Assembly: GCA_964493245.1 (NCBI GenBank)
Contig: CAZBNB010000011.1
Coordinates: forward strand, 1,124 to 65,123
Source of the DNA: an uncultured Legionellaceae bacterium
GTDB taxonomy: Bacteria; Pseudomonadota; Gammaproteobacteria; Legionellales; Legionellaceae
Reading direction: 5' to 3'
Length of the DNA: 64,000 bases
Position numbers and translations under genes: made by a program. Position 1 is the stretch's first letter, and each line of letters opens with the position of its first letter. Shown here in pieces: positions 3,977 through 40,473 of the stretch. The notes beneath the pieces were generated by a model, which worked only from the letters and a program-made list of their open reading frames with translations, had not been told where the DNA came from and did no database searches.

Positions 3977-4010
3977 AAATTAATATCCGAATTTTGAATG
4001 ATTATGGTAA

Positions 4011-4150
4011 ATGTTCAGGCAATTGCGTCAACTTAAGACGTCATTGCGAGCTTTGTTAAGCAATCCCCGGTTCTGTGTACTATATCTGGCTTGCTTCGCG
4101 ATGCTCACAAAGACCTTTTTTCCTTAAGTTGACGCCATTGAGTGAACACT
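4011..4150. repeat. Palindromic MITE-like element, family B (copy B1)
   Basis: Terminal inverted repeats atgttcaggcaattgcgtcaacttaag / cttaagttgacgccattgagtgaacact. A second full copy lies at 6437-6545. Confidence 0.8.
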
Positions 4151-6214: not shown

Positions 6215-6235
6215 CGAGTATTCATAACCTAACAT

Positions 6236-6409
6236 AACCCCAGTTCGGCGTTTTTATGCTTTTAAATCGAGAGAAATCAATGAGTACGAGGCAAACGCTC
6301 TAAAAAAGCGCAGCACTAGCAGCGCTAATGTGAGCATTTTTTAGAGCGTTTAACGAAGTAATCATTGATTTCTCTCGATTTAAAAGTATAAAAACGCCGA
6401 ACTGGGGTT
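6236..6409. mobile_element. 175-bp MITE, family A (copy A1) with 5-bp target-site duplication
   Basis: Termini aaccccagttcggcg / cgccgaactggggtt, with nested internal palindromes. Flanked by aacat on both sides (6231-6235 and 6410-6414). Confidence 0.85.
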
Positions 6410-6436
6410 AACATATGTAAGCCGTAACCGTTCATA

Positions 6437-6545
6437 CAATGGCGTAAACTTAAGACGTCATTGCAAGCTTCGCTTTCTGTGTGCTGTAATCTGGTTTGCT
6501 TTGCGAAGCTTGCAGCGACATTTTTTCCTTAAGTTGACACCATTG
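6437..6545. repeat. Palindromic MITE-like element, family B (copy B2)
   Basis: caatggcgtaaacttaagacgtcattgc ... ccttaagttgacaccattg aligns with B1 along its length. It sits 27 bp from MITE A1. Confidence 0.8.
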
Positions 6546-6736
6546 ACCGTGCATAGGGATCATGTAAGTGTTTACGCAATTGCGACAGCGTGCGCCTAGT
6601 TCTGGCTGCTTTTTTTGACAGAGTGAGCATTTACTTTTGAGTATTTTACTGTCGAAAAAGGAGCAGAATCATTAAAACTAATACGAGCAATACCTCATTA
6701 TTTAAAATATTATTCATCGCCAGCCTCGGTAGTGGC

Positions 6737-9888: not shown

Positions 9889-10123
9889 GTTGTGACTCCA
9901 AATTATCTTTTATAAAGTATCTTTCATGGATGCGTTTTATACCAAAAAAATAGTCTGACTGCAAGGTTTTACACTTAAGACTTCAAGGCTTTCTGATTAA
10001 AAACCTCAGCACGGGCAGATCGAGACTAGTGAATTTTAAGTTACAATCTTGTATAATGCTTCGCCTAAAGCTTGTTTTGGTCGCGAAACAAGTATTTAAA
10101 TTTACGATTATTAGGAGTTTACA

Positions 10124-10843
10124 GTGTCTACAGTTCATTTAGAAGCAGAAACAAGAGACGTTCAGGGGAAAGGTGCGAGCCGCCGTCTGCGTCGTGACAA
10201 TAAAGTACCAGGCGTTATTTATGGTGGGGATAAAAAAGCACAATCTATTAATTTATCCGCAAATAAAGTGACAAAAGCACTGGAAACAGAAGCAATATAT
10301 ACTGGTATATTCCATTTGTTGTTGGATGGTAAAGAAGAGCAAGTGATTCTGAAAGACATACAGCGTCACCCGTACAAGCCTGTTGTATTACACATGGATT
10401 TTCAACGTGTATCAGATAAAGACGTGTTGGTACGAATGATACCATTACATTTCATTAATGGTGAAGATTCTCCTGGCCATCTTGCTGGTGGTGTTGTGAA
10501 TCATACTTTGACGCAAGTTGAAGTACGTTGCCAAGCGCGTTATTTGCCTGAGTTCATCGAAATTGATTTGATTAACATGCAATTAGATGACGTGTTACAT
10601 CTCTCACACATTAAATTACCTAAAAATGTTGAGTTTGCAATCGACCCATCTGATCATGAACATGATCTGCCCGTCGTTGGTATTCATATTAGTAAGGCAG
10701 CATTAAGTGAAGAAGCACTTGAAGCCGCTGAAGCAGAAGCTGCGGCCGCTGCAGAAGCCAGTGAAGGGGCTGAAGAGGGCCATGCAAAAGCTGATGCAGG
10801 GTCTGATACAGATGCTGACTCAGAAGCAGATAAAGCGGAGTAA
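10124..10843 (+). CDS. rplY: 50S ribosomal protein L25/general stress protein Ctc with an acidic Ala/Glu/Asp-rich C-terminal tail
   Basis: GTG start after AGGAG. The N-terminus has the RRLRR..KVPGVIYG motif of the L25/Ctc family. The last 45 or so residues are low complexity (EEALEAAEAEAAAAAEASEGAEEG..). Confidence 0.9.
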   Translation: MSTVHLEAETRDVQGKGASRRLRRDNKVPGVIYGGDKKAQSINLSANKVTKALETEAIYTGIFHLLLDGKEEQVILKDIQRHPYKPVVLHMDFQRVSDKDVLVRMIPLHFINGEDSPGHLAGGVVNHTLTQVEVRCQARYLPEFIEIDLINMQLDDVLHLSHIKLPKNVEFAIDPSDHEHDLPVVGIHISKAALSEEALEAAEAEAAAAAEASEGAEEGHAKADAGSDTDADSEADKAE

Positions 10844-12605: not shown

Positions 12606-13604
12606 TCACCTGATGTTAGCGACAGATGGCGGTGTTAAACCAGTGGCATTAGGTTGCTGTTGCTCATTTTTTTTAAACCAAGCGTAATGAGACTGGGTGC
12701 CGCCAGATGGTCTTTTAATAGGTGGTTCGCCATTTTCAGCCATGGATGTCATTTTATTTGTATCGCCGCCTGTGCGGTTTTTCAATCCCTCATATGTCGG
12801 TGATGGCTGGCTTTCAAAAAACGCAATACGACTAACCAGGGTTTGTGCTGATGCGCGCTTATTTTCCTGATTTTCTAAGCATTGCCGAGTGATATCAACT
12901 AAAAAAGGTGATGCGTGATCTGGGATAGGATCGTGGTTATTTTGAACAATAAGCTTACAGTGCTTTGTCAAATCCGGCTCATTTTTATAGGGGGTTTTTC
13001 GAAGTAGCATTTCCAGAATAACGATGCCGAGTGCCCAGATATCTTCGGCTTCATTATAATTAAATAAGACAAATTGATTGTCAATTACGTGGTTGGCGAG
13101 TTTCGGTGATATATAGTATGGCGTGCCTTGAAGTTCATTACTTGCAGCGTTAGAAGTCGTTTTAGCGAAACCAAAATCTGTAATTTTAACTTCGTTGTTG
13201 CAATCTAGGAGAATGTTGGCTGGTTTTATATCAAGATGAATGATACCGGTATTGTGAAGATAACGTAAACCGGCAATTATACCTTTAGCAATAGACTCGC
13301 ACAATGAGAGTGGTAAGCGCCTGGATTGGTCTTTGATCAGTTCGGCTAAAGACCCATTTTCTATCAACTCGAATACAATGTAATGGAAACGATTTGATTC
13401 GATAGTGTCTTTAATAAAAGAAACAATATTAGGATGATTTTTTAATTGTTTTAGTATTTTAATTTCTTTTTGGGCAATTGTTTTTATATATGATTTAGAC
13501 CAATAATCCATTTTTTTGATGGCGACGCGTTTGTCAAGATATCTTCCTGCATACACCGTGCTATAGTTGCCTGCGCCGAGAATCTTATCGCTTTTGTATA
13601 TCAT
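12606..13604 (-). CDS. Eukaryotic-like (Hanks-type) serine/threonine protein kinase, soluble
   Basis: Subdomain I GAGNYSTVYAG, II VAIKK, VIb HLDIKPANILL, VII DFG, VIII GTPYYISPK, IX DIWALGIVILEML. No signal peptide or TM. About 60 aa of Gly/Pro/Gln-rich C-terminal tail. Confidence 0.85.
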   Translation of the reverse strand: MIYKSDKILGAGNYSTVYAGRYLDKRVAIKKMDYWSKSYIKTIAQKEIKILKQLKNHPNIVSFIKDTIESNRFHYIVFELIENGSLAELIKDQSRRLPLSLCESIAKGIIAGLRYLHNTGIIHLDIKPANILLDCNNEVKITDFGFAKTTSNAASNELQGTPYYISPKLANHVIDNQFVLFNYNEAEDIWALGIVILEMLLRKTPYKNEPDLTKHCKLIVQNNHDPIPDHASPFLVDITRQCLENQENKRASAQTLVSRIAFFESQPSPTYEGLKNRTGGDTNKMTSMAENGEPPIKRPSGGTQSHYAWFKKNEQQQPNATGLTPPSVANIR

Positions 13605-14625: not shown

Positions 14626-14739
14626 AAATAAAGATATCCTAAAAATAAGCGTGCTTGAAATGAGTTATTTGTTGTTTTAAGCACGGAATGCTAAGCGTCA
14701 CCTGGGGGCTTGTCAAGTTATTCGCATTTTAAAATGATA

Positions 14740-14788
14740 CAGGCCTTACGCAAAAAAACGATCTCTTCGTTGTTTTGCGTGAGGCCTG
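14740..14788. repeat. Short hairpin derivative of repeat family F (copy F3)
   Basis: caggccttacgcaaaaaaacgatctcttcgttgttttgcgtgaggcctg carries the two termini of the F element (see 63615-63737) without the central part. Confidence 0.7.
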
Positions 14789-14857
14789 TGATAGTCACCA
14801 CAGATTATGGTAGGATGTTAAAGAGGCCTTTTTCTAAGGGCAAGCACAGGACAGTAG

Positions 14858-26475: not shown

Positions 26476-27795
26476 GTGGATAATGTCCTCTCTGTCACGC
26501 AACTGAATCATCACGTTCGCTTGCTGCTTGAGCAAGAGATCGGGCCTATTTGTGTGCAAGGCGAGTTATCTAATTTAAGCCAACCGGCATCTGGTCATCT
26601 TTATTTCACCTTAAAAGATGCAGGTGCTCAGCTTCGTTGTGTCTTTTTCCGTAATCGACACACACGAAATCAGGCGTTGCAAAATGGTCAACAAATTATC
26701 GCGCGAGGCACGTTAAGTGTGTATGAGCCTCGTGGCGATTATCAATTGATGGTATCAGCGGTTGATGAGGCAGGTATTGGTGATCTGCATCAATTATTTG
26801 AGGCGTTAAAATTAAAGTTAGCGGCGTTGGGTTTATTTGAGCCCAGCCGCAAAAAGGCCCTGCCGCGTTTTCCGGCTTGTATTGGTATCATTACGTCTAG
26901 CAGTGGTGCGGCGTTGCGTGACATTTTAACCACACTAGACCGGCGCTTCCCTCAAGCCCGTGTTTTGGTTTATCCCAGTGATGTGCAAGGCAAAGCAGCT
27001 GTTCCTCAGCTTATCGCCGCGATGACACGCGCAAACCAAGATGCGCGTTGTGATGTCATTATTCTGGCACGAGGGGGGGGCTCAATTGAGGATTTGTGGG
27101 CTTTTAATGATGAGGCGCTTGCTTATGCCATTGCGGCGAGCCATGTTCCGGTTGTGACGGGTATCGGGCATGAAACTGATTTTACCATTGCTGACTTTGT
27201 TGCGGATTGGCGTGCAGCTACACCGACGGCAGCAGCGGAATCAGTTACCCCGGATTATACGGAGTGGGTGGCTTATTTGCAGGTAATACGCAATCGACTG
27301 TTAATCCTTATTAACCGTGTATTGCAGCATCGACATTTGTTATTACAACATCGCATACAAACATTGGCATCTCCTGAGCGTTTGATTGCAAATAATTATC
27401 AAAAGTTAGATTATCTAGAGCGTCATTTACGTGCGGCGATGCAACAGTTTTTAATGCGAAAGCATCAACGATGCCAAGTTATATTCACACAATTATCGGC
27501 GAAGCATCCCAGTGCGCGTTTAATACAAGTTGGTATGGTATTAAACCAACTTAAAACCCGATACTTGCAAGCCATGCAAACGATTCTTTTGCGTTACCAA
27601 CAGCGCTTTCAAGCGCAATTGACGACGTTAAATGCAGTGAGTCCACTGGCAACCTTGGACAGGGGCTATGCTTTGGTGATGCATGATAAGCATTTGGTAA
27701 TGAGTAGCCACGATGTTGTGATAGGGGATGTGATTCGCGTTCGTTTAGCTCAGGGTGAGTTAGCGTGTGCTGTCACAGATATATCTGGAGAATAA
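26476..27795 (+). CDS. xseA: Exodeoxyribonuclease VII large subunit
   Basis: N-terminal OB-fold sequence (SVTQLN..LLE....V.GELSN......GH.YFTLKD), catalytic core (ARGGGSIEDLWAFN, TGIGHETD) and a long helical tail. Confidence 0.9.
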   Translation: MDNVLSVTQLNHHVRLLLEQEIGPICVQGELSNLSQPASGHLYFTLKDAGAQLRCVFFRNRHTRNQALQNGQQIIARGTLSVYEPRGDYQLMVSAVDEAGIGDLHQLFEALKLKLAALGLFEPSRKKALPRFPACIGIITSSSGAALRDILTTLDRRFPQARVLVYPSDVQGKAAVPQLIAAMTRANQDARCDVIILARGGGSIEDLWAFNDEALAYAIAASHVPVVTGIGHETDFTIADFVADWRAATPTAAAESVTPDYTEWVAYLQVIRNRLLILINRVLQHRHLLLQHRIQTLASPERLIANNYQKLDYLERHLRAAMQQFLMRKHQRCQVIFTQLSAKHPSARLIQVGMVLNQLKTRYLQAMQTILLRYQQRFQAQLTTLNAVSPLATLDRGYALVMHDKHLVMSSHDVVIGDVIRVRLAQGELACAVTDISGE

Positions 27796-27796
27796 T

Positions 27797-37164: not shown

Positions 37165-38541
37165 TTAGCTCATAAACGTTAAGTTCACTTGAAACAGTGC
37201 CTCAACTTGTTTGACATAGCGTTTTTTTAATAACAATAAAATCACATGATCTTGATTTGCGAGAATTAAATCGGTTTCAGCGATATAAACATCATTTTGA
37301 CGTACCACAGCAGCCAATATGCAACCAGTCGGCAACGTGATTTCGGAGATACGTCGACCGATGACGCGAGAGGTTTCTTTATCACCGCTCAGTACCAACT
37401 CAATGGCTTCAACATCATCGTGTTGCAAGCGTGATACTTTGATCATGTTACCGCGACGGAGTTTTGTTAAAATAGAACCGATGGTAATTAATTGTGGTGA
37501 AATCGCATGATCAATCGAGCTTTCGTCGATGAGATCAACATAAGCATCTCGATTCACCAAGGCCATGGCATAACGAGCGCCCAAACGTTTAGCTTGTAGG
37601 CAACTCATGATATTCGCCTCATCATCGTTGGTCACGGCACAAAAGACATCGGTAAACTCAATATTTTCATTGACCAATAAATTTCTATCGGCGATATCAC
37701 CTTCCAAGACGGTGGTTTTATGTAAATGTGAGGCAAGTGTCAGGGCTGATTGCGGGTTGTGTTCAATCACTTTAATATGATACCGATTTTCGAGGGCCTC
37801 TGCTAAGCGTCTGCCAATATGCCCGCCACCTGCGATCATGAGGCGACGATTGGGCGCCACTTGTTTACCAAGCAATACCAATGTCGCTTCAATCGCATCG
37901 GATGAGGTAATAAATACCACGTCATCACCCAATTGAATGATTGAATCATCGACGAGTGGCTGTGCACTTTTATTGCGAAACAAAGCGACGATACTGGCTT
38001 GTGTGTCATGGATAATATGTTGTATGTTTTTGATCGTTTGATTGACCATCAGGTTGTTCGCGCTGGCTTGGACTGTGACCAGTAAAACGTGGCCATCAGC
38101 GAAATCATGGACCTCTGTTGCGCCTGGATAATCGATGAGGTTCACAATGTGCTCAGTGACCAGTTTTTCAGGACTAATGCACACATCGATGGGAATACAA
38201 TCGTTGGTAAAGAGCATGGGATAAGCATAGTAGTTTTCAGAGCGAATACGCGCGATTTTACTCGGGGTACGAAACAACGAGTACGCAATAAAACATCCCA
38301 TCATGTTAATTTCGTCACTGCTGGTGACCGCAATTAGCATATCAGCCTGTTGAATACCGGCTTCAATTAAGACATTGGGATGCGAGGCATTGCCTAACAC
38401 TGTCTGGATATCAAGACGATGTTGTAACTCGTATAAGCGTGTTTCATCAACATCGATTAAAGTAATATCATTGTCTTCGTTAACTAAATTTTTAGCCAGT
38501 GTGCCACCAACTTGTCCAGCACCTAAAATGATGATACGCAT
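37165..38541 (-). CDS. trkA: Trk system potassium uptake protein, NAD-binding peripheral subunit
   Basis: Two RCK/TrkA-N Rossmann units (IIILGAGQVGGTLA and MIAGGGHIGRRLA). 458 aa, as for TrkA. Confidence 0.9.
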   Translation of the reverse strand: MRIIILGAGQVGGTLAKNLVNEDNDITLIDVDETRLYELQHRLDIQTVLGNASHPNVLIEAGIQQADMLIAVTSSDEINMMGCFIAYSLFRTPSKIARIRSENYYAYPMLFTNDCIPIDVCISPEKLVTEHIVNLIDYPGATEVHDFADGHVLLVTVQASANNLMVNQTIKNIQHIIHDTQASIVALFRNKSAQPLVDDSIIQLGDDVVFITSSDAIEATLVLLGKQVAPNRRLMIAGGGHIGRRLAEALENRYHIKVIEHNPQSALTLASHLHKTTVLEGDIADRNLLVNENIEFTDVFCAVTNDDEANIMSCLQAKRLGARYAMALVNRDAYVDLIDESSIDHAISPQLITIGSILTKLRRGNMIKVSRLQHDDVEAIELVLSGDKETSRVIGRRISEITLPTGCILAAVVRQNDVYIAETDLILANQDHVILLLLKKRYVKQVEALFQVNLTFMS

Positions 38542-39368
38542 AGGCTCTCCGTGCCCTCATAAATAAATTCAGCAGGACCTGTCAGATAAATGTGACCCTG
38601 TTTATCGGGCCAAGTAACCGTGAGTTGTCCGCCTTGCATGTGCACTTGAGTGGGATTGGTTAACTGATAAAACAGATGACCAATAGCTGCCGCTGCCACC
38701 GCACCACTACCACACGCGTGTGTTTCGCCGCAATCACGCTCATAGACACGTAAATGAATCGTGTGGGTATTTTCAATTTGCATAAATCCGACGTTGGTTT
38801 GTTCGGGAAACAGAGGGTGCTCACTGATGGATTGTCCCAACAAGGCAACATCAACCGTGTTCAAATCCGGAACCACAATCACGGCATGTGGATTTCCCAC
38901 ATTAATGGCATGCACGGCTTCATTGTGATGGGTGAGCGGAATGTTGTAATGACGTGCCTCTTCTTTGGCTAGCAAGGGGATAGCGGTGGGTGCTAAGAGT
39001 GGTTTGCCTAAGTCGACAGTGACCGTTTGATCCTCATGCACTTGTAGCGTCATCTTTGCCGTCATAGTGGCAACTTGTATCGTGGTTTTGTCTATCAGCC
39101 CTTCTTTGAGTAAAAATCGGGCCAAGCAACGTGCGCCGTTACCGCATTGACCAACTTCGTGACCATTCGCATTAAAAATACGATAAAAAAAATCAACGTC
39201 AGGTGTGTTGCTGGACTCGACTAATAAACATTGATCAAAACCAATGCCTGTGTGTCGATGACTCCACGCTTGAATCAACGGAGGTGTTAGATTGATTTTT
39301 TGCCGAACACCATCAATCACCATAAAATCATTCCCAAGACTGTGCATCTTCGTGAAACGAATTCCCAT
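38523..39368 (-). CDS. dapF: Diaminopimelate epimerase
   Basis: N-terminal FTKMHSLGNDF and the two catalytic Cys contexts GQCGNGARC and ETHACGSGA. Confidence 0.9.
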   Translation of the reverse strand: MGIRFTKMHSLGNDFMVIDGVRQKINLTPPLIQAWSHRHTGIGFDQCLLVESSNTPDVDFFYRIFNANGHEVGQCGNGARCLARFLLKEGLIDKTTIQVATMTAKMTLQVHEDQTVTVDLGKPLLAPTAIPLLAKEEARHYNIPLTHHNEAVHAINVGNPHAVIVVPDLNTVDVALLGQSISEHPLFPEQTNVGFMQIENTHTIHLRVYERDCGETHACGSGAVAAAAIGHLFYQLTNPTQVHMQGGQLTVTWPDKQGHIYLTGPAEFIYEGTESLCVSSF

Positions 39369-39484: not shown

Positions 39485-39608
39485 AGAATGAGGTCTTTTA
39501 TGGATTACACCAAGTTAATCACTTTACGCAGCGGCGTCTTTGTTTGCGATGTATTTCGACAATCTGCTAAAAATACTGTGCTGCGTAAGATGTGTGAGTT
39601 AACTACTT

Positions 39609-39783
39609 AACCCCAGTTCGGCGTTTTTATGCTTTTAAACCTTCGATAAATCAATGATTACTTCGTTAAACGCTCTAAAAAATGCTCACATTAGCGCTGC
39701 TAGTGCTGCGCTTTTTTAGAGCGTTTGCCTCGTACTCATTGATTTCTCTCGATTTAAAAGCATAAAAACTCCGAACTGGAGTT
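39609..39783. mobile_element. 175-bp MITE, family A (copy A4), same orientation as A2
   Basis: Near-identical to A2. Flanks are tactt (39604-39608) and (t)actt. This fits a 5-bp TSD if the right terminus lost one base. Confidence 0.8.
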
Positions 39784-39870
39784 ACTTAGAATATCGATCG
39801 TAAACACAAAAAACAAGTGGTGAGGCAACTCAAGCGGATGAGTAGCTTGAGTGCTCATACAGTAGATTGA

Positions 39871-40473
39871 TTAATTGCAGTTGTTGTTTTTTGGATCCGA
39901 TGTTACTTCGTTTTCTGAATCATTCGAAGTATCTTCTTTTATCCGAAGAGCATTTAATTCAGACAGATCCTCTAAAAAAATATTTATAACACGTCGTTGT
40001 GAAGATTGAACGCTATTAGAAATATAAGCTTGTGAAGATTGAACGCTATTAGAAACATAAGCATGTGAAGATTGAACGCTATTAGAAACATAAGCAAGGG
40101 AGCGCTCAATGATATTTTCTTTTGAGCAATCGCCACTCGTAATGATGTTTGATATGGTGTCGCCAATTGTCTTTGTCGATGACGCGAGTGCTTGACTTAA
40201 TCCGGTTGCTTTTTCTGTAATGAACGAGAGTACAGTGTTATCTAACGGAGTATGTAAATGTTCTTTTAATAATCCTTGTATCCTGTCATGAAGCGTTTTT
40301 ATGTTTTTTTTCCATAACATTAATGAATATTGTTTGGTATCAGAAACGTATTGCGTTACTTGCTGCGTTATTTGTTTACGTAATTCATCGATATTGTTTA
40401 CATAAGGTTTCACACGCTCAATAATATCATTACTAAATTCAATAATTAGTTTTTGGATCATTTCTGAAGACAT
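39871..40473 (-). CDS. Hypothetical soluble protein with three 11-aa tandem repeats and an acidic C-terminus (secretion-substrate candidate)
   Basis: 200-aa ORF with no signal peptide or TM. Repeats AYVSNSVQSSH/AYVSNSVQSSQ/AYISNSVQSSQ. The C-terminal 25 aa are rich in E/D/S/N (KEDTSNDSENEVTSDPKNNNCN). Confidence 0.6.
   Translation of the reverse strand: MSSEMIQKLIIEFSNDIIERVKPYVNNIDELRKQITQQVTQYVSDTKQYSLMLWKKNIKTLHDRIQGLLKEHLHTPLDNTVLSFITEKATGLSQALASSTKTIGDTISNIITSGDCSKENIIERSLAYVSNSVQSSHAYVSNSVQSSQAYISNSVQSSQRRVINIFLEDLSELNALRIKEDTSNDSENEVTSDPKNNNCN
39998..40096. repeat. Three tandem 33-bp repeats inside the CDS
   Basis: tgtgaagattgaacgctattagaaa(t/c)ataagc(t/a) at 39998-40030, 40031-40063 and 40064-40096. 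The copies differ at only 2 positions. Confidence 0.95.

Follow-up and report, generated by a model that had tools for sequence, protein, structure and literature searches.

Our analysis indicated that a short repeat in this Legionellaceae DNA (family A) is very probably a non-autonomous transposable element, a MITE of 174–175 bp that is mobilised by a transposase encoded elsewhere. The window, by which we mean the whole stretch of 64,000 nucleotides that was analysed, holds four copies. An earlier sequence-only reading of this DNA had also described a MITE, and this identity is borne out by the small size of the repeat, its inverted repeats, the lack of an open frame, the dispersal of copies in both orientations and the 5-bp duplications specific to each site. 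The copies (read from the sequence and from their alignment) and the direct repeats that flank them are:

Copy A1: positions 6236–6409, plus strand, MITE of 174 bp; duplication AACAT at 6231–6235 (left) and 6410–6414 (right)
Copy A2: positions 28861–29035, minus strand, MITE of 175 bp; duplication GGATA at 28856–28860 (left) and 29036–29040 (right)
Copy A3: positions 30108–30282, plus strand, MITE of 175 bp; duplication ATCCT at 30103–30107 (left) and 30283–30287 (right)
Copy A4: positions 39609–39783, minus strand, MITE of 175 bp; repeat TACTTA at 39604–39609 (left) and 39783–39788 (right)

Three of these locations (A1, A2, and A4) agree with the earlier reading, and the fourth is corrected here, as A3 had been placed at 30118–30292, 10 bases away from its position. 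The near-identity reported for the copies was upheld by alignment within the window: A2, A3, and A4 share 98.3–98.9% pairwise identity, and A1 matches those three at 95–96%. The interior of the element is asymmetric, so that orientation can be assigned to each copy; two copies lie each way (A1 and A3 on the plus strand, A2 and A4 on the minus strand), as had been claimed. All four near-identical copies fall within 33 kb. Searching the window and all fetched loci with an nhmmer profile revealed no further copies, degenerate or diverged. The source genome carries at least four copies, a count that covers its accessible part (the window and short contigs).

The element is bounded by terminal inverted repeats of ~33 bp that start AACCCC(A/T)GTTCGG, and the stem at the termini runs through 33 consecutive paired columns; the inverted ends read AACCCCWGTTCGG. 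The proposal of shared termini held for every window copy, with CCCCWGTTCGGNGTTTTTATGC present at 8/8 ends with at most one mismatch and 0 matches in 100 shuffles. Each 17-base tip is also a small palindrome of its own (AACNCC-AGTTC-GGNGTT), followed by a T-run. All six frames of every window copy contain stops, and the element in the window has no open frame. As RNA, the element is predicted to fold into a single hairpin (−94.5 kcal/mol, z = −14.6; −91.9 kcal/mol for the opposite strand), and as DNA the fold reaches −64.3 kcal/mol (z = −16.6), which agrees with the one long hairpin that had been read from the letters. At the centre of the element lies a weak terminator-like hairpin with a T-run, in one orientation. 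Consensus scans found no promoter inside any copy, and reading of the sequence found the motif GTAG/CTAC to be absent from the element. An AATCAA-N4-TAC motif, noticed by eye, is one base short of the IHF consensus WATCAANNNNTTR, and for this reason we make no claim of an IHF site. With regard to known RNA families, Rfam 15 gave no match at gathering score in the whole window and only chance-level matches at relaxed thresholds (E > 2), which rules out such a family as the identity of the repeat.

The direct repeats around the copies carry much of the argument for mobility. A different 5-bp duplication had been claimed for each site, and this is exact for A1–A3. At A4 the two copies of the repeat TACTTA each include the outermost base of the element, equivalent to a 5-bp duplication with a 1-base ambiguity in the boundary, an offset that the earlier reading had also recorded. 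Across seven copies in three species (the three copies outside the window are described below), five duplications are clean 5-bp repeats, one is 6 bp, and the remaining one, of 5 bp, is shifted by a single base. As a background rate, 0.16% of window positions have the same 5-mer on both sides of a 175-bp span (1.1% when a slop of ±1 base is allowed), and the joint probability of finding duplications at all seven copies by chance is ~1e-18. Duplications at 7/7 copies at this chance level settle the question in favour of transposition over REP-like spread. The earlier reading had argued for this choice, and it is further supported by the copies in Legionella impletisoli and L. yabuuchiae, which occupy unrelated sites, each with its own 5- or 6-bp duplication.

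In the mechanism that we propose, a transposase encoded elsewhere and presumably supplied in trans would bind the terminal inverted repeats (~27–33 bp, AACCCCWGTTCGGNGTTTTTATGCTTT...). This enzyme would most likely be of the DDE type, making target cuts staggered by 5 bases. The element would then enter intergenic, AT-rich targets, and the 5-bp duplication would arise as the staggered cuts are repaired.

As the earlier reading had stated, the window itself holds no transposase: none was found among ~60 ORFs by Pfam/NCBIfam scan or by Pfam annotation on the retrieved contig. The search for an IS with matching ends, which that reading expected elsewhere, was negative in species genomes, metagenomes, viral contigs, plasmids, and phages. 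Specifically, a 24-base end pattern was scanned in one genome per species (185,579 species), where only MITEs matched and no gene-bearing element had the same ends. JGI metagenomes gave two chance 22-base end matches with no further similarity. Viral contigs and phages yielded no match, and in plasmids the whole element had none and its end only chance-level ones. Translations of the element were also compared with 5.8 billion proteins; one frame matched only the two pseudo-ORFs of L. impletisoli, and the other matched nothing. We infer that the partner may be an IS generating 5-bp TSDs, as the sequence-only reading had put it. Among families that make 5-bp duplications, the outer ends are GGGG in Tn3 and TG in IS2, Tn7, Mu, and Tn402, and the AACCCC outer end of family A appears unlike any of these. 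These unlike ends count against the MITE reading, as do the absence of any autonomous element with matching ends from the searches above and the fact that 2/7 duplications are not clean 5-bp repeats. In structure, family A shows every property expected of a MITE, and a partner with matching ends is the sole exception.

Beyond the window, the end pattern matched just two of the 185,579 species genomes: that of L. impletisoli, with two full copies, and that of L. yabuuchiae, with a single one. Along all 175 bp these copies share 76–81% identity with those of the window; they lie at unrelated loci, with the duplications CCATT and CCATAT (6 bp) in L. impletisoli and TTCGT in L. yabuuchiae. In L. 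impletisoli, ~95 kb separate the two copies, whose surroundings are ordinary chromosomal DNA with no transposase close by. In these two copies (9981–10155 of each retrieved locus) one reading frame is open from end to end, which accounts for the annotated 'hypothetical proteins' of 71 and 77 aa; we regard these as spurious genes. Synteny between L. impletisoli and the window is limited to the liu genes, and the MITE sites of L. impletisoli have no counterpart in the window.

The conservation of the element between these hosts exceeds the neutral level. Orthologues of the window organism and L. impletisoli share 58–70% protein identity, and identity at four-fold degenerate sites is 32–34%, which indicates saturation. 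Set against the 79–81% identity of the element between these hosts, the saturated sites exclude its neutral vertical descent. The comparison of sequences thus suggests that the element spread horizontally, that its hairpin is under selection, or both, and family A probably reached its distant hosts L. impletisoli and L. yabuuchiae by horizontal transfer. An element identity of ~80% across synonymously saturated hosts suggests exchange of mobile DNA between distant Legionella lineages.

The closest relative that we retrieved (Logan run SRR33557407; DUF333 protein 78% identical) retains MFS-SDR-xseA-nagZ-DUF333 as its gene order. Between nagZ and DUF333 it has a spacer of 106 bp, vs. 327 bp in the window, with no trace of the element. 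The empty-site comparison suggested by the earlier reading was thus achieved in part: the element is absent from this spacer, but the divergence of the spacer is too great for an exact empty site to be delimited. This absence, together with the 98–99% identity of A2, A3, and A4, supports the recent activity that had been proposed. We conclude that family A was recently amplified in the source Legionellaceae genome and is present at low copy in L. impletisoli and L. yabuuchiae. The repeats also have a practical effect, as short-read assemblies are broken at the element: the proteins of the window are otherwise found only on short contigs from Logan run SRR13608702 of the source genome, and these contigs end 28–29 bases inside the element, where the repeat interrupts the assembly.

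The differences between lineages fall mostly in the stems and are compensated. Both sides have changed with pairing kept in 14/73 stem pairs, and 97.7% of cells are paired; in slid controls, where the partner was shifted by 1–3 columns, only 1–3 pairs had changed on both sides with pairing kept. An internal bulge that is asymmetric (GAGTACGAGGCAAA opposite TTTAACGAAGTAATC) has stayed almost unchanged in 7/7 copies from three species. Copy A1 differs from the others by a cluster of changes and a one-base deletion at columns 137–144, where the sequence of the right arm has been replaced by the exact complement of the left arm. This is an arm conversion tract, and it shows that a neutral route to 'compensatory' changes exists. 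Moreover, the covariation comes from essentially one split (the window vs. the impletisoli/yabuuchiae lineage), so that selection on the hairpin structure is possible and should not be put more firmly. The compensatory changes and the A1 tract together offer a small view of how palindromic elements stay palindromic.

These observations bear on two related alternatives. We consider it unlikely, if worth keeping in view, that the element is a selected structured RNA/DNA module, and/or that it is mobilised by a transposase outside the characterised IS families, with self-palindromic ends of the AACCCC type. Such a module, its covarying stems and near-invariant bulge retained across very distant Legionellaceae, could be, for example, an RNase III-processed regulator or a source of small RNA that was spread by transposition. 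Distinctly unlikely, in our judgement, is the reading in which the repeats are a functional structured RNA/DNA hairpin (a small RNA, a cis RNase III target, or a terminator module) whose mobility is secondary or ancient. The excess of compensated pairs over the slid controls, the near-invariant bulge, the conservation far above the neutral level and the central terminator-like hairpin with its T-run in one orientation would all be consistent with that reading. However, the copies face both ways and their settings are unrelated (one follows a stop codon, one separates divergent genes, and one lies upstream of dapF), and each has its own target duplication. The element also has no promoter-like site inside it and no Rfam match at either gathering or relaxed thresholds. 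In addition, the covariation reflects a single split and can be produced neutrally by arm-to-arm conversion, as seen in A1. Under the MITE reading that we prefer, a co-transcribed hairpin of ~73 pairs could still be a plausible RNase III substrate, by analogy with Correia elements, or act as a block to transcription.

The copies are placed close to genes. Copy A1 lies 22 bp downstream of a pssA-like gene; a palindromic repeat of another kind is 14 bp away from it. This repeat belongs to a second palindromic family (4007–4141 and 6424–6546; ~125–135 bp; ends GTTCAnnCAATnGCGTnAACTTAAG), whose two copies are ~85% identical, fold into hairpins of −55 and −44 kcal/mol, and show no clear target duplication. 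The first base of A2 is the last base of the stop codon of a nagZ-like ORF (27767–28861, TAA at 28859–28861), as the earlier reading had observed, and the original TAA has been rebuilt by the A2 duplication. Equally in accord with that reading, A3 sits in a divergent region between a Cys-rich 83-aa ORF (29777–30028, minus strand) and the ACP/FabZ/KAS operon (30414 onward, plus strand). Copy A4 is 240 bp upstream of dapF (38523–39368, minus strand) and 87 bp downstream of the ORF at 39871–40473 (minus strand). Positions against gene ends and between divergent genes make a change of expression possible, and the copies may influence how strongly the ACP/fatty-acid-type operon and dapF are expressed; we infer any such effect on neighbouring genes from position.

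Several neighbouring genes have features of their own. The 83-aa ORF, a putative gene divergent from the ACP operon, has a signal-peptide-like start and 11 cysteines. The operon (30414–35168, plus strand), directly downstream of A3, encodes an unusually long ACP (137 aa) together with two ketoacyl synthases, a double FabZ-like dehydratase and an acyltransferase of the lipid A type; its gene set resembles a pathway dedicated to fatty-acyl compounds or lipids. Near A4, ~4 tandem 33-bp units (TGTGAAGATTGAACGCTATTAGAAAYATAAGCW) occupy 39965–40116 inside the 200-aa ORF at 39871–40473 (minus strand). This ORF has no family match, and the units could be a binding-site array and not coding sequence.

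The wider gene content of the window is typical of Legionellaceae and includes a eukaryotic-type protein kinase, a leucine-catabolism cluster, the ACP/FabZ/KAS operon and large ORFs without domains. The kinase gene (eukaryotic-type Ser/Thr) is at 12606–13604. Between 52486 and 63561 lie ORFs of 1819, 523, 137, and 852 aa for which Pfam gave no match and NCBIfam no meaningful one; the only gene to break this run is of the YGGT family, on the minus strand (60039–60704). These ORFs and the kinase are plausibly secreted effectors of the Legionella type. The large ORFs without known domains are flanked by copies of a third palindromic family (~125 bp, ends CAGGACTTACGCAAAACAACGA), found at 60699–60829, 63608–63738, and 14733–14800. 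The copy at 63608 folds at −66.8 kcal/mol, that at 60699 is degraded, and that at 14733 is a short form that looks like two ends joined.

Family A can be compared with several known systems. An origin as a Tn3-family-derived miniature (TIME), moved by a Tn3-type transposase, is very improbable. TIMEs resemble family A as non-autonomous miniature elements with a 5-bp duplication, the length made by the Tn3 family. Tn3-family ends, however, are ~38 bp long with GGGG at the outer tip, and this also holds for TIMEs, whereas both tips of family A begin AACCCC; furthermore, one copy has a 6-bp duplication, and the window contains no Tn3-type transposase or resolvase. We give next to no credence to a REP/BIME-like or IS200/IS605-derived palindrome that owes its spread to recombination or to a tyrosine (HUH) transposase: the repeat is indeed extragenic and highly palindromic, down to its 17-base tips, but to our knowledge such elements have neither target-site duplications nor long terminal inverted repeats, so the duplications at 7/7 copies effectively refute this origin, and the long inverted repeats and the lack of GTAG/CTAC also speak against it.

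The Correia elements of Neisseria (NEMIS/CREE) are non-coding, ~100–155 bp long, and have terminal inverted repeats of ~26 bp; they lie in intergenic positions close to genes, and their transcripts form long hairpins that are processed by RNase III. We know of no autonomous partner for them. Family A shares the small non-coding form, the inverted repeats, the long hairpin and the intergenic location near genes. Correia elements nonetheless differ in their ends, in duplicating the dinucleotide TA, and in having promoters and an IHF site. Family A, in contrast, makes varied duplications of 5 bp (5–6 bp) and has no consensus promoter. Its duplications and its other ends rule out membership in the Correia group.

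A closer parallel in terms of host is QMITE2 of Coxiella burnetii, also a member of the Legionellales, which shares the long stable hairpin with family A (PMC5896051). QMITE2 elements are 150–190 bp long, with terminal inverted repeats of 17–29 bp and a unique direct repeat at each copy, and are found mainly in intergenic regions and at gene 3' ends, where they sometimes overlap the last bases of the ORF (Wachter et al. 2018, PMC5896051). Their direct repeats are 7–13 bases long, as opposed to 5–6 in family A, and they carry the GTAG REP core that is the target of IS1111, which family A lacks (PMC5896051). Moreover, the copies of QMITE2 are old and fixed between strains (PMC5896051), whereas the window copies of family A, 98–99% identical, look recent. 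Compared by description, membership in QMITE2 is ruled out by the 5–6 bp duplications and the absence of GTAG/CTAC.

No searchable paper contains the end sequences of the element. On this basis family A is an undescribed family of an ordinary element type, and the current understanding of MITEs is unchanged by it. MITEs were found in 99.6% of Legionella genomes in a 2024 survey (NAR, PMC11602168) and are, as such, to be expected in the genus. Family A differs from the conserved MITEs of that survey (PMC11602168) in that its end pattern is confined to L. impletisoli and L. yabuuchiae in the species genomes scanned here. For the Legionellaceae, whose MITEs have been listed in large numbers and seldom studied one by one, it provides a clean example of a recently active element.
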